In this document: in pieces, positions 5,146-30,149 of the stretch
Numbering within the stretch: the stretch's first letter is position 1
How the letters are laid out: each line of letters starts with the position of its first letter
Origin: Candidatus Nanosynbacter sp. BB002
GTDB lineage: Bacteria > Patescibacteriota > Saccharimonadia > Saccharimonadales > Saccharimonadaceae
Direction of reading: 5' to 3'
NCBI RefSeq assembly: GCF_037013405.1
Contig: NZ_CP146064.1
Location: forward strand, 270,001 to 302,000
DNA: 32,000 bases
The notes under the pieces: model-generated
Told to the model about the DNA's origin: nothing
Databases searched by the model: none
Seen by the model: the letters and a program-made list of their open reading frames with translations, nothing else
Made by a program: the position numbers and the translations under genes

Positions 5146-5631
5146 ATGAAGCCTATAGTGACCGCGTCGGAGTTGGAAGCATTAATCAGTGAAGCCTTTG
5201 ATGTTGATGTCTCAGTAAAGCGATTTATCTTGCCGTTGTCTGATGTTGGCCGCACGGCGCAGGCGACGGTCTTTATGGCGTCGAACAATCAATTATTGCT
5301 CTATTTGCGCGCGTCTTCTAACATGACGCTAGCGGATGTCAAAAAAATAGCAGTGCGCATGGGACTTAGGCTGGACGAGTTCTATCCGCCGAAGTACCAG
5401 CCGGATTATTTTGACATTCTTGGTCGCCAAAAATTTCAAGAAGTGTTCCCTGGCATGACGGTACAGTCTGAGGAGGATTTGATTTTTTACCGAACATTGG
5501 CGCCATATAACCCTGCCCTGGCAGTGGTTTCAGAAATCAAAAATGGCGAAATCCATCAATTTGACCCTGACGTTCACGGCGAATGGCGAGTGGGCGCACG
5601 GTTTGCCTACAGGAAGGTCCGCGCCAAATAA
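5146..5631 (+). CDS. Hypothetical protein (161 aa), translationally coupled to the downstream P-type ATPase
   Basis: This is an intact ORF with a leaderless-type start context. Its stop TAA (5629-5631) overlaps the ATPase ATG (5631-5633) as TAATG. I recognise no motif. Confidence 0.65.
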   Translation: MKPIVTASELEALISEAFDVDVSVKRFILPLSDVGRTAQATVFMASNNQLLLYLRASSNMTLADVKKIAVRMGLRLDEFYPPKYQPDYFDILGRQKFQEVFPGMTVQSEEDLIFYRTLAPYNPALAVVSEIKNGEIHQFDPDVHGEWRVGARFAYRKVRAK

Positions 5632-9974: not shown

Positions 9975-10112
9975 CATTGTATATCAACCGTCTAGCCAGA
10001 AGTGGTTGGGCGGTTTGTTTGTATGATTTGGTCTATTGTATAGATACCCCCTATCTTTGTGCCTATATCTTGCGTAGGTCTAGCGCCAAATGTATTGAGT
10101 GTGAGGAATATA

Positions 10113-13100
10113 TTAATCTCTAAACCGCTCTTGCTTAATTATGCGGTTTCTTTCTCTCTCATAAGTCTCTGCAAGCTCACGTAGTGATGTTGCAAGATTT
10201 ATAAAACCCAAAGACTCAATCTCATTTGCACGATTCCGCCATTTATCTCTCAAGGAGGCCTCAGCCTCGCCCGTTTCGTCTACTACGTGCATACCACGTG
10301 CATTATGAATACCCATGTTGTACCCAGATCTCATAGATACTGAATCATTTCGGTCTAAAATTCTTGCTACCGTTTTGTTGATCCATAAGCCGCTTTTATC
10401 TTCAGGAGAGTTTATTAGGTATCCACCTATAACAGATTGGGCGATACCCAAGTGCCCACTCATCTTACATATCTCTTCGACCTTGTATATCCAGGTAATA
10501 AAATCATCTTCTCGGAATGTGCCATATTGGTCTATGCCTGGCATAACCATAAAGTCATTAAACGATAATATTTTTAATAATCTGTATTGGATAGCATCGT
10601 CAATCTCTTGCTGCTTGACATCGGGAAGTTCTGATTTGTAGGCAGTCTTAATTAGATCGCAGAAAAAATCTGCATCATTTGCAATTCGATATATTAATGC
10701 TCGTGGTTGTCCTATGCCATGTTTTCCAAAAAGACTAATACAGCCCCACTCCGCCTCCCATAGGTTCGTTCTTGTATAGTCAATGTTGTCGTATAAATAC
10801 TTGAATACTCGACCTATTTCGTACTGTAAGTTATTTGTGCCTGAAATGTTTTCAGTGGTATTTAATGATGCCATTAGTGCTTTTAGACATAGTTCTGGAT
10901 CAATTTGCTGTTTGATGGAGCTATCACCCATAATGATCACTGAGGCAATATATTCAATTGCGGCCAGAGGGCGCTTGGCCTTCAGAAGGTTTCTAACTGC
11001 AGCTTCGGAATATTTATCATCAATCGTATGTCTAAAATTATCGACCCTATCCCAATATCCTTTAGTAAGGTCTTTATTTTGTTGTGCGTCCAATAGGTCC
11101 CAGGTGCTTTGGCTAAATGGCAAAGCTAGAAGAAGTAGAATCTTCTGTTCGTTATTCCAGCTGGCAAAATCTAACTTATTAACCCAGTTGATATCACCTT
11201 TATAATAGAAATATCTCGTATAAATGAAGTTACTAATAAATTCTTTTTCAGCTTTATTCTCGTTGAGGAATTTAGGTAATAGCATGTTTTCGATGGATGG
11301 ATAATTTATAGAGCCCAGGCTAGATCCTATGGTGTACGGCATCTTGGCTTGGTTAATAAGCTCATTCAGCTGGCGAATGGCATTATCTGAGTTTAAAATC
11401 TTGAGAAGTGATTCTCGCTGTTTCTCTTCCAGTTCTTTCTTGCCTTTTTCCCAGTCGTTATAGCCTATAAGATCATGGTCATAATTACTAAATAGATATA
11501 TAGACTTACACAAATCATCTTCAGGCTCTATATCACTGGCAATTTTTTTGAGTATCTTTACCCTTTCGTCTTCATCTTTACTGCGCCGATCTAGATTATT
11601 TATTTTTTTAAGTAATACCTCCCATACTACTTGCCTATCTTTATCAGTCATGTTTTGCAGGCGCTTATTTAGTTGGTTGGTAAAACTCGGCAAAGTATCA
11701 TCGGTAAGATGGTTAACGCTATTGATTGCATCAACGATTTCTTGAAGAGACTCGGTTGTATCTATGTAGAGATTTGAGTAGTATGAACTCTCCTTCCATA
11801 GCTCTTGTTGCGTAACAGGCTGAAGAGTATTGGTAATATCTAGCCATTCTGGAAGTTTCCTCTCCATGGTTGTTTGAGTCATATTCGGCAGTAAACCCTT
11901 GAGTAGCTCTCGCCCGACAGCTTTATGCTCATTGACTATTTTTTCGACCACACCGTGTTGAACCTCTAAGGGGGCAAGCGTTTTCGGCTGCCACGGCAGG
12001 ATCGTATGTAGGATGGTATCTAGGGAACGCTTTTTATTCTCTGTCTGATCAATTTCGAGGGTTGCAATCTTAGCTAACACTAGACTAGCTCGTGAAAAAT
12101 ATTTTTTATCCCAAGATAAATCAGCCAGCGCCCAGTATAAACCAGTCATGTAATCTGGCTGAAAGAATGAGTCACCTGAACTTTCCTTTATACCTGTCGC
12201 AATTGGATTATCATTTTTTATTTTAAGGGTGCTCTCTAGTCTTGACAAAAACTGAACTGGAGATGCTTGAGCGATTAAAGAGGCGTTGTCTGTGATGCTC
12301 ATCCATAGTTTTGGATTTTGACTATCAGAAAGTAGCCCGGACACTATATTATTTGCCGTATTGGCTATTTTGTTGGCAGAGCACTTGCTAAACATACCTT
12401 GATTATTCGCAAGCATGGCCATACCATTTGCTACGCCAGTCCTAATTGTCGCTGAGTATGCTCGGCTCTTTTTGTAAATATTAGCCATATATCTTTCGTC
12501 TATTGGCAAATCTAGCGCTGGATTAATTTCACTCAGGATCCTTAAGTAAATATCCGCAAAAACATCAATATGGTTGTCATAAATGCATTTACTTAGCTGC
12601 TCAACCGTAGATTTAATGTCAAGAACCTTCCACGTAGTATCTCTTAGTTCTAGTACTTGATCATCGGTAGAATTTATTTCTTGGACTACGTCCAACAAGG
12701 AGTCTTCATCACATCTTAGCAATTCAGACACTATTTTTTTATCATTTGAATTTGCAGAGTCAAATTCACCAATTAAACATAGTAATGCTAGCTCTTTTTT
12801 GTGTGCTGTTTTAATTGTGATCTTGTTTTTTGACGGTTCTGCTTTTTTGACTAATTGATTTTCATCCTGTAAGCTCACTACATCATCTTGTCGGATTACT
12901 TTCTCTTCTTTGAATATCTCCAGTAGTTTTTTAGGCAGATCATCTTTTAATAGCTCTATCTGGTCTTTATTACGAGTAGCTACATAATGACAGAGCCGTT
13001 CCCATACAACTTTAGGGCTTACGTTATCTTTCCATTTTTTCTGTGCCAAGATGCTATGAATCAAGGCGACATTAATATCACCGTCTTCAAACAGATTCTC

Positions 13101-13724
13101 ATGCATGTCAGATTTTATTATGAAGAAAGATTTCAAGAACTCAAATTCCACTTCTCTATCTAAGGCAATGTTATTGTTTGCTAGTGTTAGTTTTTCGCGC
13201 AGATACCTAAGACCATTAAGCTCATCTTTATTTCTGCCTAAAACATTATTATCGTAGTTTTCCCAGAACTGATCAGCCGACTGATAAGAGCTTTGAATAT
13301 GAGTCAGTATATTCTTCAGCCCAATTCCACTCTTCTCAAGCTCGCCAGTGACGAGCATTATTCTATCAGAGTTCCTATTAAAGCTCTGGCTGTTAAAATC
13401 GTTCCAAGCATCTTTTATGGTTTTTGTAAATTCACCGTTTGAAAGACGAACTTTTCGCTTTACCTGAACCAGTAGCGTCTTTTCTCTTCTCGGGTTGTTC
13501 AGGTCTTTAAGGGTTACTTCGCAATCATCAGTCTTCCTTCCATATCGCTCTGCCTGGAATACTATCCTCGTTACTTCGCAGTTGTCCATCCTAGGCACTA
13601 GTCCACCTGTGATCATTTGGATCACAAAAAATGCCTGCACGGAATGCTCAAAAACATACCCATCGCCAGATGCGGATATGGGGTTTGTGCATCCCTTGGG
13701 TATTGCCGAGTCGCCACTGCTCAT
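10113..13724 (-). CDS. Giant orphan protein (1203 aa) with a PD-(D/E)xK-like nuclease head and about 1100 aa of uncharacterised, probably helical, sequence
   Basis: This is an uninterrupted 3.6-kb ORF in visibly AT-rich DNA. The N-terminus carries ordered motifs GYVFEHSVQAFFV (Glu helix), KTDDCEVTL (Asp strand) and LLVQVKRK (QxK). I found no GxxxxGK[ST] Walker A anywhere. A TATAAT box lies 8 nt upstream of the ATG. Confidence 0.8.
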   Translation of the reverse strand: MSSGDSAIPKGCTNPISASGDGYVFEHSVQAFFVIQMITGGLVPRMDNCEVTRIVFQAERYGRKTDDCEVTLKDLNNPRREKTLLVQVKRKVRLSNGEFTKTIKDAWNDFNSQSFNRNSDRIMLVTGELEKSGIGLKNILTHIQSSYQSADQFWENYDNNVLGRNKDELNGLRYLREKLTLANNNIALDREVEFEFLKSFFIIKSDMHENLFEDGDINVALIHSILAQKKWKDNVSPKVVWERLCHYVATRNKDQIELLKDDLPKKLLEIFKEEKVIRQDDVVSLQDENQLVKKAEPSKNKITIKTAHKKELALLCLIGEFDSANSNDKKIVSELLRCDEDSLLDVVQEINSTDDQVLELRDTTWKVLDIKSTVEQLSKCIYDNHIDVFADIYLRILSEINPALDLPIDERYMANIYKKSRAYSATIRTGVANGMAMLANNQGMFSKCSANKIANTANNIVSGLLSDSQNPKLWMSITDNASLIAQASPVQFLSRLESTLKIKNDNPIATGIKESSGDSFFQPDYMTGLYWALADLSWDKKYFSRASLVLAKIATLEIDQTENKKRSLDTILHTILPWQPKTLAPLEVQHGVVEKIVNEHKAVGRELLKGLLPNMTQTTMERKLPEWLDITNTLQPVTQQELWKESSYYSNLYIDTTESLQEIVDAINSVNHLTDDTLPSFTNQLNKRLQNMTDKDRQVVWEVLLKKINNLDRRSKDEDERVKILKKIASDIEPEDDLCKSIYLFSNYDHDLIGYNDWEKGKKELEEKQRESLLKILNSDNAIRQLNELINQAKMPYTIGSSLGSINYPSIENMLLPKFLNENKAEKEFISNFIYTRYFYYKGDINWVNKLDFASWNNEQKILLLLALPFSQSTWDLLDAQQNKDLTKGYWDRVDNFRHTIDDKYSEAAVRNLLKAKRPLAAIEYIASVIIMGDSSIKQQIDPELCLKALMASLNTTENISGTNNLQYEIGRVFKYLYDNIDYTRTNLWEAEWGCISLFGKHGIGQPRALIYRIANDADFFCDLIKTAYKSELPDVKQQEIDDAIQYRLLKILSFNDFMVMPGIDQYGTFREDDFITWIYKVEEICKMSGHLGIAQSVIGGYLINSPEDKSGLWINKTVARILDRNDSVSMRSGYNMGIHNARGMHVVDETGEAEASLRDKWRNRANEIESLGFINLATSLRELAETYERERNRIIKQERFRD

Positions 13725-14004
13725 AATATAGAATTATAGCACTTATATTAATACATAGCTTGATAGCTCGCCGACGGTTACACGCCTTACAGCGGTCTAT
13801 ATTTATCACGTTCGTCTGATGTGCTAGGTTTATGTGTGTATAGCTAATATATCAGCGCGGTTATTTTCATTCATGACAACGCACCGACTAATATCTTTTG
13901 AAAGGTCCAGAGAATAACGATCAAAATAACCATTTAATGATATGATTACAGGGTCTATAATAAAGTCATTGTATGTCTTGAAGTTATTAACAGAAAGGAA
14001 AAAG

Positions 14005-14652
14005 ATGGAAATCAACAAAGTCGCGCTAAAAGCATTTTATGATCTTCATAAAGAGGACTATTTTCGGCGACGGTATTCTGGCGATGCTAAGCTGTGGGAT
14101 GAATTATATAAATGGGATATTCTGCCTCGCCTCAACAAGGAGTTGGCGCAGTACCAATCAGTTACTAAAGAGTCAGTTGCAGAGGTTGCGCGCATCCTGA
14201 CACACCACACAAGTACTAGTAATTTTGCTAATTGGCGGGACATTGATGATTTGAAAGATTTTTTGCAGCGCCCGAATGCTCACGCTGTCATTAATGAGCT
14301 ATGGCGTGCAACGCCTGAGTCTGTCGATCAGAATATTGATAGCGCTGGGGCGATGACACAATTCTTGATGTCAGACAAAAAATTTGCTCCATCCACTTGG
14401 GCTTACCTGCTCGCAGCGCGTGACTGTCATTCATTTGCGCTCTACCGTGATGTAGTCATGAAACAGGTCGCCGAAATATGTGGTATAGATAAGCCCGCTG
14501 CCGTATCTCAGGGTAAAAAATATGCCCTAGTGAATGATGCAGCACTATATTTAGGTGAGCTGATGCGACGCGATATCACTGAAGCGCCGTATATGCAGGC
14601 GCTGGATGGTCAGGATTTCTTGTGGGTTGTGCTGATGTATAGCGAAGACTAG
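14005..14652 (+). CDS. Hypothetical protein (215 aa), divergent partner of the giant ORF
   Basis: I chose the start MEINKVAL because it is preceded by GAAAGGAAAAAG (SD-like). The ORF-track start at 13942 lies in AT-rich promoter DNA. I recognise no catalytic motif. Confidence 0.65.
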   Translation: MEINKVALKAFYDLHKEDYFRRRYSGDAKLWDELYKWDILPRLNKELAQYQSVTKESVAEVARILTHHTSTSNFANWRDIDDLKDFLQRPNAHAVINELWRATPESVDQNIDSAGAMTQFLMSDKKFAPSTWAYLLAARDCHSFALYRDVVMKQVAEICGIDKPAAVSQGKKYALVNDAALYLGELMRRDITEAPYMQALDGQDFLWVVLMYSED

Positions 14653-17215: not shown

Positions 17216-18259
17216 CTACTGCACGTATTTTTTGGCGCGAGCTTTGTCGACTTGGACTGTTTCAAAGACGGTTTTGGCCATTTGGTCAAAGGCATTCTTG
17301 CCTTCAGCGTTGTAGCGGCCAGTCCCTTGTAGTATCACGCCGTCCTTTTCAAAATAGTAAAAGAAGGTGACGTAGCTTGTCGGGTCACTTTGTGGCGCTG
17401 TGTGTTGTACTTCTTTGGAATTATACTTGGTAATTTGGTCGTATTTGTGGGTGCCAGCCTTTACATAATAATCATCTGCAGTCGCCTGCTCTAGTGTTTT
17501 AGAGGTGGAAACAGGACGAACTGTGAGGCTGATTTGGACATTATTTCTGGTGCCAACAAAAGTGATTTTGTCATCAGCACTGGACCGTTGCGTGATGCTA
17601 AAGCCGTCGATTTCATTAGCGAACTTGTTTACCTTCACGATTTCTCGGTCATCTGAAGTGTATTCTTGGTCGGGCGCTTGGTAATTACTGTCGTACCTGA
17701 CAGACTTGACCAATGACTGGATACTGGATGACTCGAACAAGGTTTTACTGCCTGAAGCATTGCTGATATTTTCAATGTCTAGGTGGAGTTCGTACCATTC
17801 TTGGTCACGCTGAACCAGTGGTATTTTGACGATGTAGTGATATGAATTGTCATCATAGGCATAGCCTCCCAGTGCGCCAGTGGCTTTGTCAGCTTTGAGC
17901 TCGGTGAAGTTGCCTCGTTTTTTGGCAGCCTCGAGGTCGTTGGCACGGCTGGCTTTCCCGACCTGCGCGATTTTGGCGGTGATGGTGTATGTTTCGCCCT
18001 TGTCTTTGATGGTCATGGTTGGAAAGCGCGGACGCTCTTCGCTTTTGATCTCGTACGAATACTGGTCTTTCGGCAGCAACATAGTAGCAGCGATATTGTA
18101 GCCATCAGAGGCGAAATGAACTGTGTTGGCAGCCAGACGCTGATTGATCTGCTCTTTTTGATGGTGATTATAAAATATGATCCCTAGGATACTGACTGCA
18201 ATGACAAATAAGCCAATGAAAACGCCAATAAAGATCTGTTGTTTTTGTCTTCTACGCAT
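17216..18259 (-). CDS. N-terminally membrane-anchored hypothetical protein (347 aa)
   Basis: The N-terminus MRRRQKQQIFIGVFIGLFVIAVSILGIIFY is a signal-anchor. The remainder is hydrophilic with no motif I recognise. Confidence 0.7.
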   Translation of the reverse strand: MRRRQKQQIFIGVFIGLFVIAVSILGIIFYNHHQKEQINQRLAANTVHFASDGYNIAATMLLPKDQYSYEIKSEERPRFPTMTIKDKGETYTITAKIAQVGKASRANDLEAAKKRGNFTELKADKATGALGGYAYDDNSYHYIVKIPLVQRDQEWYELHLDIENISNASGSKTLFESSSIQSLVKSVRYDSNYQAPDQEYTSDDREIVKVNKFANEIDGFSITQRSSADDKITFVGTRNNVQISLTVRPVSTSKTLEQATADDYYVKAGTHKYDQITKYNSKEVQHTAPQSDPTSYVTFFYYFEKDGVILQGTGRYNAEGKNAFDQMAKTVFETVQVDKARAKKYVQ

Positions 18260-18266
18260 AAGCGGT

Positions 18267-18295
18267 ATTATATTTTGTTTATGCTAAATTGTCAA
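18267..18295 (-). promoter_or_regulatory. Perfect consensus promoter of the 347-aa gene
   Basis: On the minus strand: TTGACA (18295..18290), a 17-nt spacer, then TATAAT (18272..18267), followed by 7 nt and the ATG at 18259. Confidence 0.65.
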
Positions 18296-23861: not shown

Positions 23862-25292
23862 TTTCCATGCCCAAATGCTGCCACTTGGCGTGTCGCGAAT
23901 GGCGATGCCAGCCGCCAACAGCTCATCGCGAATGCGGTCGGATTCTTGCCAGTCTTTCTCGGCGCGGGCGCTGCGTCGCTGGATGATCAATCTTTTCAAA
24001 TCGTCAGTGATGTCAGGGGTCGATGCCGCCAAATCCAAGCCTAAAACCTCATCGATAATTTCAATCAATTGCAACAAGCCGCCGCGATGGATTTTCTCTA
24101 ACGGCGCATGATCTAGCCGTGAAAACGCTTCGTCGATTAGAGCCAAGGCTCCTGGCGTATCCAAGTCATCATTCAGTTTTTCAACGAGCGCCTGCCGCGC
24201 CGCCAGTAGCGACACCGTGCCTTCCTGCTCGTCCTTCTCATCGTCATCATCCAGCGTGTCGTGCGTCTGGTGCCGCAGCGCCGCATAGCCACGCCAATGA
24301 TCCAGCCGGGCTTGGGCTGCTTCCAAAATCTCCCAGGTGAAATTGCCTTCGGTTTGGTAATGCTTGCTGAGAATCGCTAGCTTGAAGGCCATCGGGCTAA
24401 AGCCACGGGCGGTGATATCGCTAAGGGTGATGATGTTGCCCAGCGACTTACTCATCTTGCGGCTGTCGACTTTGATGTGGTTATTGTGCAGCCAAATTTG
24501 AGAGAATTGCTGCCCAGTCAGGCTCTCGCTCTGAGCAATTTCGTTGGTATGATGCACCGGAATGTGGTCGATGCCGCCAGTGTGAATGTCGATTGCATCA
24601 CCCAGCGTCTCCCGAGCGATGGTCGAGCATTCTAGGTGCCAACCTGGAAAACCGACGCCCCACGGGCTGTCCCATTCCATGTCGCGCTTGGCGTTGGTTG
24701 GTGAAAACTTCCAGACGGCGAAATCGGTGATGTTGCGCTTGCCTGCCACGCTGACCCGCGCGCCGGCCTCTAGGCCCGCCACGTCCAGTCGCGCCAATTT
24801 GCCATAATCCGGTAGTCGCGACGTATCAAAATACATACCATCGCCGTCAATCTTGTACAAAAATCCCTTTTCGTCCAGCCCCTTGGCAAAGTCGATCTGC
24901 TGCTGGATATAGTCTGTTGCCCGCACTAAATGGTCGGGCCGCACTAATTTCAATACCTCATATGCTTCGTGGTCGGCGATGGCGATGTACTGCTCGGCAA
25001 TATCCCAAGCGGTTTTCCCTTCGCGGCGCGCCCCCTTCTCCATCTTATCCTCGCCATTATCATCATCGCTGGTCAAATGCCCAACGTCAGTGATATTTTG
25101 CGTACGAATCACTGGAATGTCCTGCCAGCGCAACAAGCGCACCAATACATCCCAATAGATATAGCCAACCCAGTTGCCGATGTGCGGCTGCGAATACACC
25201 GTCAGCCCGCAGGTATACATGCGAACCGTCTGCCCGTCAAGCGGTTTTAGTTCATCTTTACGGCGAGTGAGGGTGTTGTAGAGCTGTATCAT
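23859..25292 (-). CDS. cysS: Cysteine--tRNA ligase
   Basis: The HIGH motif is QPHIGNWVGY and the KMSKS motif is RKMSKSLGN. The start MIQLYNTLTRRKDEL is the typical CysRS N-terminus. The promoter TTGAAA-17-TACAAT lies 7 nt upstream of the ATG. Confidence 0.95.
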   Translation of the reverse strand: MIQLYNTLTRRKDELKPLDGQTVRMYTCGLTVYSQPHIGNWVGYIYWDVLVRLLRWQDIPVIRTQNITDVGHLTSDDDNGEDKMEKGARREGKTAWDIAEQYIAIADHEAYEVLKLVRPDHLVRATDYIQQQIDFAKGLDEKGFLYKIDGDGMYFDTSRLPDYGKLARLDVAGLEAGARVSVAGKRNITDFAVWKFSPTNAKRDMEWDSPWGVGFPGWHLECSTIARETLGDAIDIHTGGIDHIPVHHTNEIAQSESLTGQQFSQIWLHNNHIKVDSRKMSKSLGNIITLSDITARGFSPMAFKLAILSKHYQTEGNFTWEILEAAQARLDHWRGYAALRHQTHDTLDDDDEKDEQEGTVSLLAARQALVEKLNDDLDTPGALALIDEAFSRLDHAPLEKIHRGGLLQLIEIIDEVLGLDLAASTPDITDDLKRLIIQRRSARAEKDWQESDRIRDELLAAGIAIRDTPSGSIWAWK

Positions 25293-25457
25293 CAACTCTA
25301 TTGTACGGCAGACAGGCCGCTTTTTCAAAGTTCGCTTTCGTCGTTTCCGACTCATCAGCACAGACACACATCTATGGAGCGAACTGACAAGCAGGAGAAT
25401 AATACCGCGGCGGAGAGAGCCGCCAGATAGAGTTCTCAGCGGCTTGCCAGTTCGGGT

Positions 25458-26017: not shown

Positions 26018-26046
26018 TTGACAGTATTAACAATATAGTGTATAAT
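26018..26046 (+). promoter_or_regulatory. Perfect consensus sigma70 promoter of HExxH paralog 1
   Basis: TTGACA (26018-26023), a 17-nt spacer, then TATAAT (26041-26046). Confidence 0.7.
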
Positions 26047-26055
26047 TTGATGACT

Positions 26056-26940
26056 ATGAGTGAGCGACGTCCTGGCAGCACATCACCCACGCGGCAGAGG
26101 TGGCACCCGATTAACAACCCGGCGGAGCTTGGGCGCATTCAGGACCAGTTGGTAGAAACGCTGGATCGTCCTGAAATCACTGACAAACTGGGAGGTTTGG
26201 CGCTGGAACTTGCCGAGGTTGCTCAGCAGCTACATCCTGTTACGTACAATAGGGATGGTATTGTCAGAGCGGATGAGTTGCTGGCGTCTGACCCGAACAG
26301 TATCCCGCTAGTTGGAAATACAAAATTCACCTCGCATTTTAAGCTTGCGCCAACGCCTATGCAACTTGAAGCCATCAACAAAAAGCTAACCAGCGATGAA
26401 TGTGGTCAAATATTAATTCCTCAGCTAGAGAGAGTGTTAGGTAGTAAATATAATAGCGAGATGATGAAGGTTGATCGTCCGAGTCTAGCTACATGTTGCG
26501 CAGTGACAAAATATTTTAATCTTACTAAAGACGATATTTCTCATGTTGCAGGTCGGCCTTTTATAGGCATGAACTCTACTGACATTGAACCAATCGACAT
26601 TGCGGTTATGGTCCATGAAGCGACGCACGCGTTGGATCATGTGAATACTCCATTCCTCTATGTTTGTGACAAAAAAGATCTATCAGCCGCCATGTTAACA
26701 GGTTTCAAATCTCGTCTTAAACTTGCTCGTGAGTTAAAGGCGTACGCGGTTGGCGACTGTGTCGAGCGGTATCTTGCCGAGACTCACGGGTTAATGGAGC
26801 GCGCTGCGTTAGCATCTCGCAGAGTTGAAGCTATCCGTCAGGAGGTCAATGGTCCCGTGACTGCAAAAGATGCCTTTGCGGTACATGATGATTTGGTGAA
26901 ACGTTTGATTGCAGCAGGCTTGGGTCATATTTATCAGTAG
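26056..26940 (+). CDS. HExxH (zincin-like) protein, paralog 1
   Basis: The motif VHEATHALDH is followed by a downstream Glu in RELKAYAVG. I saw no signal peptide. The start is ambiguous between the ATGs at 26050 and 26056. The ORF-track GTG at 26038 overlaps the -10 box. Confidence 0.75.
   Translation: MSERRPGSTSPTRQRWHPINNPAELGRIQDQLVETLDRPEITDKLGGLALELAEVAQQLHPVTYNRDGIVRADELLASDPNSIPLVGNTKFTSHFKLAPTPMQLEAINKKLTSDECGQILIPQLERVLGSKYNSEMMKVDRPSLATCCAVTKYFNLTKDDISHVAGRPFIGMNSTDIEPIDIAVMVHEATHALDHVNTPFLYVCDKKDLSAAMLTGFKSRLKLARELKAYAVGDCVERYLAETHGLMERAALASRRVEAIRQEVNGPVTAKDAFAVHDDLVKRLIAAGLGHIYQ
26842..26888 (+). repeat. Copy 1 of a 47-nt block (41 nt identical, 1 mismatch, then 5 identical) shared by the two HExxH genes
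   Basis: The sequence is GAGGTCAATGGTCCCGTGACTGCAAAAGATGCCTTTGCGGT-A-CATGA. It encodes EVNGPVTAKDAFAVH. Confidence 0.9.
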
Positions 26941-26963
26941 AGCTTATGTCTTGAGCCTTACAA

Positions 26964-26992
26964 TTGACAAAATACTAATTATAATGTATAAT
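26964..26992 (+). promoter_or_regulatory. Perfect consensus sigma70 promoter of HExxH paralog 2
   Basis: TTGACA (26964-26969), a 17-nt spacer, then TATAAT (26987-26992). The ATG lies 12 nt downstream. Confidence 0.7.
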
Positions 26993-27004
26993 AAAAAGAT
27001 AGTT

Positions 27005-27847
27005 ATGAGAGACGAACTGTACATCATTAACCCGTCAACCCCTAGCTATGATAACCCTATCCCGCTAGATTCTTTAAAGTACATGAAAGATAAACTATTA
27101 GGTGCTTTAGAGAATCCTGAGATACTTGATAAGCTGGGAGCGGTAGCCCTAGGGTTATATGACACGGCTCAAATGCTGGAGCCTATGGAATGGGTTGAGG
27201 GTGAAGAACTAGGAGATAGTCATCCTGACTCTGATTGGACGGATAAAAATATTATACCGCTTATTGGTTGTGATAAGTTTGTTATCTCTGGAAAACAGAT
27301 GTCTCATATGCCAGTCCAAAAAGCTAAAATAGACGAGGCTCTCGCCAGCGACAAGTATGCCGGAGTGTATGGCGATGAAATATATGATCAGATAAAGGCC
27401 TCGCCTGTTATGACAAAAGAGACAGGAAAGCTCACCGGATCTTGTCATACCAGTTTCTCCATGGTAACTGACATGGACCTTTATATATATTCTCGTCCTG
27501 TTGTCAGCGTAGCTAATAGTGGACTTATGGCTATCAATGTCGCCACTTTGTCTCACGAGACAGATCATGCGCGTGATTATGTTATGGACCCAGTTGTGGA
27601 GATATATCCCAAAGATGACCGAGCAAGACTCTGCTCTGAGCTGCGAGCCTATGCCGTAGGTAAGGTGTTTCAGGATCATCTAATGTACGAGGATAGAATG
27701 ATGTTGAGATACCCTAGTTTGTCCGATCGAGTAGAAAAGGTACGAAGAGAGGTCAATGGTCCCGTGACTGCAAAAGATGCCTTTGCGGTGCATGAGGGCA
27801 TAATTCAGCGCTTGGAGCAAGCGGGCCTGAGTTATATTTACAAATAG
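27005..27847 (+). CDS. HExxH (zincin-like) protein, paralog 2
   Basis: The motif SHETDHARDY is followed by SELRAYAVG. It shares PEI(T/L)DKLG, IPL(V/I)G and REVNGPVTAKDAFAVH with paralog 1. I chose the start MRDELY, which is downstream of the promoter. Confidence 0.75.
   Translation: MRDELYIINPSTPSYDNPIPLDSLKYMKDKLLGALENPEILDKLGAVALGLYDTAQMLEPMEWVEGEELGDSHPDSDWTDKNIIPLIGCDKFVISGKQMSHMPVQKAKIDEALASDKYAGVYGDEIYDQIKASPVMTKETGKLTGSCHTSFSMVTDMDLYIYSRPVVSVANSGLMAINVATLSHETDHARDYVMDPVVEIYPKDDRARLCSELRAYAVGKVFQDHLMYEDRMMLRYPSLSDRVEKVRREVNGPVTAKDAFAVHEGIIQRLEQAGLSYIYK
27749..27795 (+). repeat. Copy 2 of the 47-nt shared block
   Basis: The sequence is GAGGTCAATGGTCCCGTGACTGCAAAAGATGCCTTTGCGGT-G-CATGA. 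Confidence 0.9.
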
Positions 27848-27864
27848 TAAACCTGTCAAATGAT

Positions 27865-28949: not shown

Positions 28950-28994
28950 GGACACATAAGGTCCGAGGTGAGGATCAAAAGAAGAGGAGTTTTT

Positions 28995-30149
28995 ATGAAT
29001 AAATTTAAGAAAATCGGTATAGCTATCTCTTTGGGGATTGCTCTCATCGGTGGTATTTGGATGGCGACTCCATCTAAGGCTGCCAACTGTAGTAACTTTA
29101 ACGTTGTCCACTGTGGTACCAATTCTCTGTCAGAATTGAAATCCGCATATGCTCGTCCAGAGATCAAATCATTGTACAACCAATGGTACATCAATGATGA
29201 GATGGTACAAGGCGGTTCAAACATGCGTGAAGGTGTGGTTGACGCTAACGGAAATATTACTGTTGATGGTCGTGTTGTTGCCACTAATGCAGTAACTGTC
29301 CAGGCAAAAGCTGGTACTCGCCAGGTGACGCCTTCTCGTCAGTATAGTGCTGCTGGTCACACCTACTACCAGTACACGACTGGCCAGAGCTTTATCGACG
29401 GTATTACCCGGTACAAAATTTATGCTTGGTTTGACAATGACGGTAAGTTCATCACTGGTGTGATCAAGGATTGTGGTAACCCGGTTTGGGGTCCGCCAAC
29501 AACCCCTCCAGCAAAGCCTGTGTTGACTTGTGATGCGATGCAAAAAACTGCAGTATCTCGCGATACTTTCAAGTTTAGCACTAAAGCGACTGCTAAGGGC
29601 GGCGCAAGTGTTACCAGCTACACCTACAACTTTGGTGACGGCACCACTAAAACGACTACCTCATCTGAAATTCAACACACATACGCAAAAGCTGGTAACT
29701 ATAAAGTTACCGTTACGGTGAATGGTAAAGAAGGCTCCAATGTTCAAAAAACTAGCCAAAACTGTCAGACCACTGTTACGGTTAATCCTGAGCCTACCAT
29801 GGAAGTCTGCCGATTATCCGACAAGAAGTACCCAGTAACTATCAAGGCTTCAGAATTTGACGCTAAGAAGCACTCAAAGAACCCGAACGACTGCAAGGAA
29901 GCTCCAGCTAAGATCAAGGTTTGTGTCATCGAAACGAAAGAGATTCGTGAGATTAAAAAGGAAGAGTTTACTGAGTCAAAGCACACGACTGACATGAGTA
30001 AGTGTCAACCAGCGCCAACGACTCCTACTCCTCCAACAACTCCTGAATTGCCACGGACTGGTACTGAGAACATGGTTGTTTCAGTACTGGGACTCGGTGG
30101 ATTGACTACGGCAGCTGTCGCCTACGTCATCAGTCGCCGCCGCTTGTAG
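28995..30149 (+). CDS. Sortase-anchored (LPXTG) surface protein with a PKD-like domain
   Basis: The signal peptide is MNKFKKIGIAISLGIALIGGIWMATPSKA. The PKD-like signature is YTYNFGDGTT...HTYAKAGNYKVTVTV. The C-terminus has LPRTG, a hydrophobic segment and then RRRL. Confidence 0.85.
   Translation: MNKFKKIGIAISLGIALIGGIWMATPSKAANCSNFNVVHCGTNSLSELKSAYARPEIKSLYNQWYINDEMVQGGSNMREGVVDANGNITVDGRVVATNAVTVQAKAGTRQVTPSRQYSAAGHTYYQYTTGQSFIDGITRYKIYAWFDNDGKFITGVIKDCGNPVWGPPTTPPAKPVLTCDAMQKTAVSRDTFKFSTKATAKGGASVTSYTYNFGDGTTKTTTSSEIQHTYAKAGNYKVTVTVNGKEGSNVQKTSQNCQTTVTVNPEPTMEVCRLSDKKYPVTIKASEFDAKKHSKNPNDCKEAPAKIKVCVIETKEIREIKKEEFTESKHTTDMSKCQPAPTTPTPPTTPELPRTGTENMVVSVLGLGGLTTAAVAYVISRRRL

Follow-up and report, generated by a model that had tools for sequence, protein, structure and literature searches.

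A tandem pair of fast-diverging, predicted gluzincin-like metallopeptidases in a hypervariable slot of Saccharibacteria

The gluzincins (MEROPS clan MA(E)), among them thermolysin (M4), the botulinum neurotoxin light chain (M27) and the minigluzincins, have in common a helix bearing the HExxH motif and a glutamate supplied by a downstream helix. The textbook order of elements in their catalytic domain is backing helix, sheet, active-site helix and glutamate helix; in botulinum neurotoxin A (BoNT/A) the second histidine and the distal glutamate are H227 and E262. Smaller HExxH proteases are also known: the cytoplasmic ImmA/IrrE enzymes (Peptidase_M78, COG2856), with a glutamate ligand some 26 residues downstream and a frequent location in variable or mobile regions beside small genes, and the zincin effectors NleD (Peptidase_M91) and NleC (M85), which are compact and have no Sec signal. 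Here we describe two adjacent genes of Candidatus Nanosynbacter sp. BB002, found in a stretch of 32,000 nucleotides (NZ_CP146064.1, positions 270,001 to 302,000; hereafter the window, with coordinates counted from its first nucleotide). Gene 1 (allele type A, 26056-26940, plus strand) encodes 294 residues and gene 2 (allele type B, 27005-27847, plus strand) its paralog of 280 residues. Both products are likely to be active zinc metallopeptidases of the gluzincin type, with zinc binding and peptidase activity predicted from the features set out below. The two proteins are 33% identical from end to end (BLASTP, E 6e-46), bearing out an earlier note on this DNA that had read the genes as a tandem pair of diverged HExxH paralogs; the five shared motifs which it listed are all present and are conserved in an alignment of 40 close homologs. 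An alternative in-frame ATG of gene 1 at 26050 would give 296 residues, and the methionine of MSE... (26056) is the start in most of its homologs.

In gene 1 the motif HEATH (H187-E188-x-x-H191; 26614-26628, plus strand) provides the predicted zinc-binding and catalytic residues, and E226 (26731-26733, plus strand), within the motif ELKAY, is the putative third zinc ligand. The corresponding residues of gene 2 are HETDH (27554-27568, plus strand) and the distal glutamate E212 (27638-27640, plus strand), so that both paralogs retain every catalytic residue. A deep family alignment was built from 68 members with a mean identity of about 20% (gene 1 numbering is used throughout). H187, E188, H191 and E226 are the only internal residues invariant in all 68, and the first three are present in 39-40 of the 40 close homologs; loss of these residues among homologs, which the earlier note had named as grounds for abandoning its reading, was thus not observed. 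Its extension of the motif to HExxHAxD did not hold, as the aspartate is not conserved across the family. G46, Q103, R167, P168, L227, A229 and R261 are conserved in at least 90% of members. The family signature can be approximated as h-x-H-E-h-x-H-[AV]-x(6-7)-P-[IV], then 8-25 residues, then E-L-x-A-[YH], which by its sequence is a gluzincin signature. In gene 1 the second histidine and the glutamate are 35 residues apart, as in BoNT/A; a difference from the gluzincins is that this distance is not fixed across the family but ranges from 24 to 35 residues.

Structure prediction depended strongly on the depth of the alignment. With a shallow alignment AlphaFold gave a mean predicted local distance difference test score (pLDDT) of 41, and with the 68-sequence alignment a pLDDT of 89.1 and a predicted template modelling score of 0.90. 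In the latter AlphaFold 2 model the N-terminal half comprises helices (22-57), short strands, further helices (101-130) and a sheet built of long strands (135-174), the last of which starts at a conserved G-R-P. The C-terminal half consists of the HExxH helix (178-197), a short strand, the long helix carrying E226 (211-244) and three more helices. The order of elements in the predicted model matches the textbook zincin/gluzincin order, and the family would share with the gluzincins the succession of sheet, active-site helix and glutamate helix. A Foldseek search of the model against the PDB and BFVD returned nothing with E below 0.3 and so does not confirm the zincin fold. The zincin-like placement made in the earlier note is supported by the sequence signature and by the predicted order of elements. 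The family also differs from the gluzincins in having an N-terminal helical motif, L..P.V...LG..A..L, and a C-terminal motif, VE.(I/V)R..(V)NG...AF, for which no counterpart can be named, and no solved gluzincin matches it significantly by sequence or in Foldseek.

Neither window protein has a match at curated threshold in Pfam, NCBIfam, PHROGs or PADLOC, and searches of PDB sequences with single sequences and shallow-alignment profiles gave no relevant match, in agreement with the earlier note, which could not place the pair in a named family. The 84 close homologs found by a word-indexed search all lack a name. When 1.84 billion cluster representatives were searched exhaustively with an HMMER profile, 88 were returned at E ≤ 1e-3, mostly full-length and of 260-300 residues; since only these were found, and none of the curated collections matched, the family is small and unannotated. 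All 18 loci drawn from the species-level genome collection belong to metagenome-assembled genomes (MAGs) of Candidatus Saccharibacteria (TM7), and the phage, plasmid and IMG/VR collections held no relatives. The family is apparently restricted to Saccharibacteria. We regard it as a new lineage-restricted family inside a known kind of enzyme, with unusual locus dynamics.

More distant similarities were sought with the deep profile and with each member separately. Against the PDB the profile gave only matches of E about 1, of which 22 of 24 are zinc proteases; the best, BoNT/A light chain and snapalysin, are weak, and the alignments cover the HExxH helix and the strand preceding it. Pfam scans of the 68 members likewise gave weak matches only. 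Every family matched by at least two members is a zincin family (DUF6782, SprT-like, M91 and eCIS_core); PhageMetallopep and M78 were hit by one member each, as were 11 unrelated families. These weak Pfam and PDB matches fall mainly on zincins and point towards the zincin reading. The best sub-threshold match is to DUF6782, a putative metallopeptidase family (three of 68 members, best E 2.6e-6). Two of these alignments, not including the best one, were inspected and span about 20 residues on the HExxH helix at 13.6-18.2 bits, against a cut-off of 27 bits; the window proteins themselves give no match, and a literature search found no mention of DUF6782 in Saccharibacteria. As regards ImmA/IrrE, only one member matches M78, weakly (E 0.025), no Xre or helix-turn-helix (HTH) partner gene is present, and the small gene next to the pair is an unrelated one belonging to a RAGATH-10 cassette (below). 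The likeness to NleD and NleC lies in the compact HExxH protein without a Sec signal and in fast evolution, as expected of effectors. Three members match M91 far below threshold (best E 0.0097). Unlike those effectors, the window pair has no identified secretion system or signal, and its host is a bacterium rather than a eukaryote.

The pair is flanked upstream by an ABC transporter pair, an AI-2E transporter gene and cysS, and downstream by genes for a DHH/DHHA1 phosphoesterase, a PKD-domain protein with an LPxTG-like C-terminal motif and topoisomerase I. In sister genomes the products of cysS, the AI-2E transporter gene and the DHH gene are 94-99% identical to those of the window at the amino acid level, gene 1 is 72-96% and gene 2 83-96% identical. 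One clade (L013-L015 and L017), with flanks 93-96% identical, has a single gene in the slot which is 37-41% identical to either window gene. A further lineage (L150-L152), with flanks 88-90% identical, has two tandem genes, each with its own TTGACA-17-TATAAT promoter; the first, with 36% identity to gene 1, represents a fourth allele type, and the second is gene 2-like at 56% identity. The alleles of the window, the single-copy clade and L150-L152 are so diverged that the slot between cysS and the DHH gene must hold at least four deep allele types, of which A, C and D occupy the first position and B the second. The slot is hypervariable: its proteases are 33-96% identical where the flanks are 88-99% identical. 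Every related genome examined has the family, in one to three copies. In distant lineages it lies next to der, as one copy in L019 (der/rluB-like) and as three tandem paralogs in L024 (1136-3692), whose mutual identity is about 30-33%. Copy-number variation, which the earlier note had proposed to look for in gene neighbourhoods, is therefore real and extends over one, two and three copies and a fused gene. Several family copies are frameshifted in MAGs. Some sister loci carry extra cargo between the second zincin gene and the DHH gene (L006/L009/L018 and L011/L018), namely a low-GC open reading frame (ORF) of 122 codons and proteins of 281-300 residues; those of 299-300 residues begin ...AHIYEHLAM, with an HxxEH-like motif. 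None of these variable cargo genes has a Pfam match.

Evidence of recombination between the paralogs comes from a tract of 41 nucleotides, encoding EVNGPVTAKDAFAV, which is identical in gene 1 (26842-26882, plus strand) and gene 2 (27749-27789, plus strand), while apart from this exact identity the third codon positions of the two genes are saturated. The tract is kept in both genes in most sister genomes. The paralogs of L152 have no common tract longer than 10 nucleotides, and the 41-mer is for this reason best regarded as a lineage-specific gene-conversion tract. We considered and rejected a conserved functional DNA or RNA element at this position, as the tract is missing in the L152 lineage and marks a crossover junction. 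This junction is seen in L005 (8226-8885), where a single chimera joins the body of gene 1 to the C-terminus of gene 2 at the 41-nucleotide tract; such a gene is the product expected of unequal crossover. The alleles are mosaic more generally, with blocks of 100% nucleotide identity abutting blocks of 55-67%.

Within the clade the ratio of nonsynonymous to synonymous substitution rates (dN/dS) is 0.19 for gene 1 and 0.31 for gene 2, and 0.04, 0.05 and 0.02 for cysS, the DHH gene and the AI-2E transporter gene respectively. The dS of gene 2 is 0.15 as against 0.44-0.57 in the flanks, a sign that gene 2 alleles may recently have been exchanged among genomes. The genes are functional and their catalytic core is constrained. 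In sliding windows dN/dS is 0.29-0.42 in the most variable segment of gene 1 (codons ~106-165; 26371-26550, plus strand), against 0.07-0.17 in conserved parts; peak values at codons ~106-165 are 0.35-0.59, and around HExxH the ratio is 0.15-0.17. In the model this segment corresponds to helix 117-130 and the first strands of the sheet, before the active-site helix, and sits where a zincin would contact its substrate and may thus shape the cleft. The family evolves and recombines far faster than the surrounding housekeeping genes.

A perfect consensus promoter before each gene had been claimed, and both were found: TTGACA-17 nt-TATAAT at 26018-26046 (plus strand) for gene 1 and at 26964-26992 (plus strand) for gene 2, with 9 and 12 nucleotides respectively between the -10 hexamer and the ATG. 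The window has six such sites with at most one mismatch (0.15 expected from shuffled sequence), three of them perfect. The gene 1 promoter is retained in 13 related loci (at most one mismatch) and that of gene 2 in 12 loci as well as upstream of the B-like copy in L152; both keep position and sequence in about 12 related MAGs, and the diverged alleles of other lineages are also preceded by equivalent consensus promoters. Given a near-consensus promoter for each, both genes are probably strongly and constitutively expressed. As the ATG lies so close to the -10 hexamer, the mRNAs are predicted to be leaderless or nearly so. The very short leader remarked upon in the earlier note is present at both genes and is not special to them: TATAAT is followed by an ATG after 6-12 nucleotides at five or more other genes of the window, so that the layout is a habit of this genome, and we rejected the idea of a special leaderless regulation of the pair. 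The third perfect site (18267-18295, minus strand) stands 7 nucleotides upstream of an ORF of 347 codons (17216-18259, minus strand) that has no Pfam match. A promoter-like TTGACA-17-TATAAC with one mismatch (27831-27859, minus strand) is located just past the gene 2 stop and is aimed into gene 2, from which it would yield an antisense transcript; a 156-codon antisense ORF at 27209-27679 is probably spurious.

The composition of the pair also sets it apart from the flanks. The GC content of gene 2 is 44.2% and that of gene 1 47.7%, so that gene 2 is indeed the more AT-rich, as had been noticed, and the housekeeping flanks have about 54%. GC at third codon positions (GC3) is 0.42 and 0.44 for genes 2 and 1, as against 0.62-0.65 in the flanks; the pair and the neighbouring 86-codon ORF span 0.42-0.46. 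The absence of signal peptides and transmembrane segments was confirmed by hydropathy, for the window proteins and for the family generally: the median maximum Kyte-Doolittle value (19-residue window) is 1.06 over the 68 members, and neither window protein has an N-terminal hydrophobic run.

Taking these data together, we favour the view that the genes encode active, diversifying metallopeptidases aimed at foreign proteins, and give this reading as a whole about an even chance. The zinc site would be formed by the two histidines and the catalytic glutamate on the HExxH helix, with the glutamate of the next long helix as third ligand, and the substrate cleft would be lined by the β-sheet that precedes the active-site helix and closes with the conserved G-R-P strand. 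From its own near-consensus σ70-type promoter, each gene would give rise to an mRNA with little or no leader. The interval from cysS to the DHH gene is prone to recombination: whole alleles are swapped, alleles exchange segments, unequal crossover at the shared 41-nucleotide tract adds or removes copies, and some copies are frameshifted. The enzymes would be kept active while their specificity diversifies, since change concentrates before the active-site helix and the core is under purifying selection. Their targets may be fast-changing foreign proteins of the actinobacterial host or of phages, the proteases serving either as attack effectors or in counter-defence. We are led to this by the contrast with the flanks, allele swapping and copy-number change, the variable presumed substrate segment and the retained strong promoters. 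That both proteases act on foreign proteins in an evolutionary conflict is a tentative claim, to which we would give somewhat less than an even chance; the fast evolution and recombination hint at, but fall short of proving, involvement in conflict with host bacteria or phages.

Several observations weigh against this proposal. No signal peptide, transmembrane segment or linked secretion gene was found at the locus, and export of the proteases is pure conjecture. Neither gene has a sliding window with dN/dS above 1, and relaxed constraint together with recombination is equally compatible with the data. The frameshifted copies could reflect assembly errors or dispensability. Single-copy distant homologs lie in housekeeping neighbourhoods (der, rluB-like and two-component genes), which would suit a cellular role too. 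The strong expression is a prediction from promoter sequence, and the Foldseek result described above also counts here.

Saccharibacteria live as obligate epibionts on very small genomes, and almost nothing has been learned of the molecules with which they act against or together with their host bacteria. Actinobacterial hosts restrain the growth of Saccharibacteria through Esx-secreted protein effectors (preprint PMC13622651), so that conflict between host and epibiont at the level of proteins is real. A more specific version of our proposal is that the family consists of Saccharibacteria-specific conflict proteases which leave the cell by a non-classical route and cleave proteins of the actinobacterial host, the mosaic, exchangeable segment before the active-site helix setting which host strains can be exploited. 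We consider this version unlikely as it stands; host surface proteins or the Esx substrates AesA/AesB would be candidate targets and, if it were true, the cysS-DHH slot would be a host-range locus. The pair is in any case a testable candidate determinant of host interaction or phage resistance, because its catalytic residues are kept, its expression is probably strong and it is among the fastest-changing loci between near-identical genomes. A new metallopeptidase family is also defined here, whose confidently predicted structure has no Foldseek match in the PDB, and the locus offers a clear natural case of allele shuffling and copy-number change via a short gene-conversion tract.

Among the alternatives, the one that survives best is that these proteases work inside the epibiont on its own proteins, in regulation or quality control, either by repressor cleavage in the manner of ImmA/IrrE or by scavenging peptides in an amino-acid auxotroph. 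The absence of signal peptide and transmembrane segment agrees with this, as do the M78/IrrE-like spacing of 24-35 residues from HExxH to the glutamate, the single weak M78 match, the overall purifying selection and the location of distant homologs amid housekeeping genes, twice near response regulators. However, identities of 36-56% would not be expected of such enzymes where the flanking genes are 88-99% identical, nor would mosaic alleles and a variable copy number. M78 was not matched at the curated threshold, and none of the loci examined has a conserved HTH or repressor partner gene. On balance we think a self-directed role improbable.

Somewhat less probable again is an anti-phage module in a small defence-like island, in which the protease would be activated upon infection and destroy phage proteins or essential proteins of the cell (abortive infection). 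A hypervariable slot with changing, Pfam-less cargo genes in sister genomes would be at home in such an island; so would the low GC3 relative to the flanks, the gain, loss and frameshifting of copies and the RAGATH-10 RNA and hammerhead candidate next to the slot (below), both RNA elements typically met in mobile or selfish contexts. Most defence genes are patchy, whereas this family occurs in every related genome examined, and neither a PADLOC match nor a sensor, NTPase or partner domain was found. Moreover, a lone protease toxic to its own cell would be dangerous to express from a perfect consensus promoter unless the enzyme were held inactive.

We also considered that the proteins may be metal-dependent hydrolases other than peptidases, acting for example on the cell wall or other non-protein substrates, or proteases of DNA-protein crosslinks resembling SprT/Wss1. 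SprT-type enzymes have histidine rather than glutamate as third ligand and are conserved rather than hypervariable; the present family, with its glutamate and its hypervariability, departs from them on both counts, although three members give weak SprT-like matches. A fold without a match to any peptidase structure leaves room for a different chemistry, but wherever two or more members share a sub-threshold match, it is to a family of a peptidase clan, and a Pfam scan found no domain for binding nucleic acids or the cell wall. We judge either possibility quite remote.

The earlier note had further linked the pair to the small divergent gene upstream, an ORF of 86 codons (orf86; 25718-25458, minus strand). 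This ORF gave nothing meaningful in scans of Pfam, NCBIfam, PHROGs and PADLOC and shows no HTH. It is preceded by a full-length RAGATH-10 RNA (Rfam RF03147; 25815-25725, minus strand; 91.9 bits against a gathering score of 41.2, E 7e-17), which ends 7 nucleotides before the orf86 ATG. All loci of the two-copy clade have RAGATH-10, irrespective of their orf86 allele, and neither RAGATH-10 nor orf86 is present in the single-copy clade; orf86 was also not found in the distant homolog loci examined. A covariance model built from the RAGATH-10 copies of the clade was run on 124 pattern-matched metagenomic and viral stretches and identified 49 genuine copies. In 48 of these a small ORF (81-160 residues) follows within a few nucleotides, and these ORFs fall into at least five unrelated families (orf86-like, lipoprotein-like and several membrane proteins); in 30 of the 49 the small gene is unrelated to orf86. 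A zincin gene lies near only 13 copies, all from the window's clade, and none was detected in the locus DNA of the other 36, some of whose contigs are short. RAGATH-10 thus seems to be a 5′ leader cassette that can travel with small genes of various kinds. Since no zincin was detected beside most of its copies, orf86 is not a dedicated partner of the proteases; we rejected it as a cognate partner, and the proposed link reduces to co-occurrence in one clade.

The least likely reading, to which we attach very little weight, is the effector/immunity or protease/inhibitor arrangement suggested by the earlier note, in which one paralog or orf86 would neutralise the other: the tight tandem layout with a small divergent gene in the window's clade is suggestive of it, but no catalytic residue has been lost from either paralog, the family also occurs singly, in three copies and as a fused chimera, co-occurrence is not obligatory, and orf86, whose homologs were found only at ≥75% identity, is missing from the single-copy clade and the distant loci and belongs to the RAGATH-10 cassette.

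A candidate type III hammerhead ribozyme (25385-25329, minus strand) is located downstream of orf86, between its stop codon and cysS. All core nucleotides are present, in the order stem III (8 bp), C17, stem I (7 bp), CUGAUGA, stem II (4 bp with a GAAA loop) and GAA. The Rfam score of 19.8 bits is sub-threshold; the minimum free energy fold is the exact three-way junction (z = -3.07), and the element is kept in 16 related loci. RAGATH stands for RNAs Associated with Genes Associated with Twister and Hammerhead ribozymes, and the name fits the arrangement of RAGATH-10 and hammerhead candidate seen here. Neither RAGATH-10 nor hammerhead ribozymes in Saccharibacteria were mentioned in the literature searched. 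The cysS ORF as read from GTG 25367 is almost certainly over-extended, a typical N-terminus (MIQLYNTLT) beginning at about 25289; the extra upstream 'codons' (25290-25367) overlap the hammerhead candidate. A second copy of the hammerhead candidate lies elsewhere in L013 (332-278). In L150-L152 a divergent RAGATH-10-like element (~5551-5631, minus strand; 27.9 bits with our own model) precedes an unrelated gene of 176 codons and occupies the position that orf86 has in the window.

Two further features of the window were recorded. A block of low GC at about 10000-14000 (34-41%, against ~50% elsewhere), possibly foreign DNA, has ORFs of 1203 codons (10113-13724, minus strand) and 236 codons (13942-14652), neither with a Pfam match. 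The PKD-domain protein downstream of the DHH gene (28968-30149) carries LPRTG followed by a C-terminal hydrophobic segment, as in sortase-type surface proteins. It is 98-99% conserved in the window's clade, and in the single-copy clade (L013-L017) it is replaced by two tandem copies of 50-64% identity.

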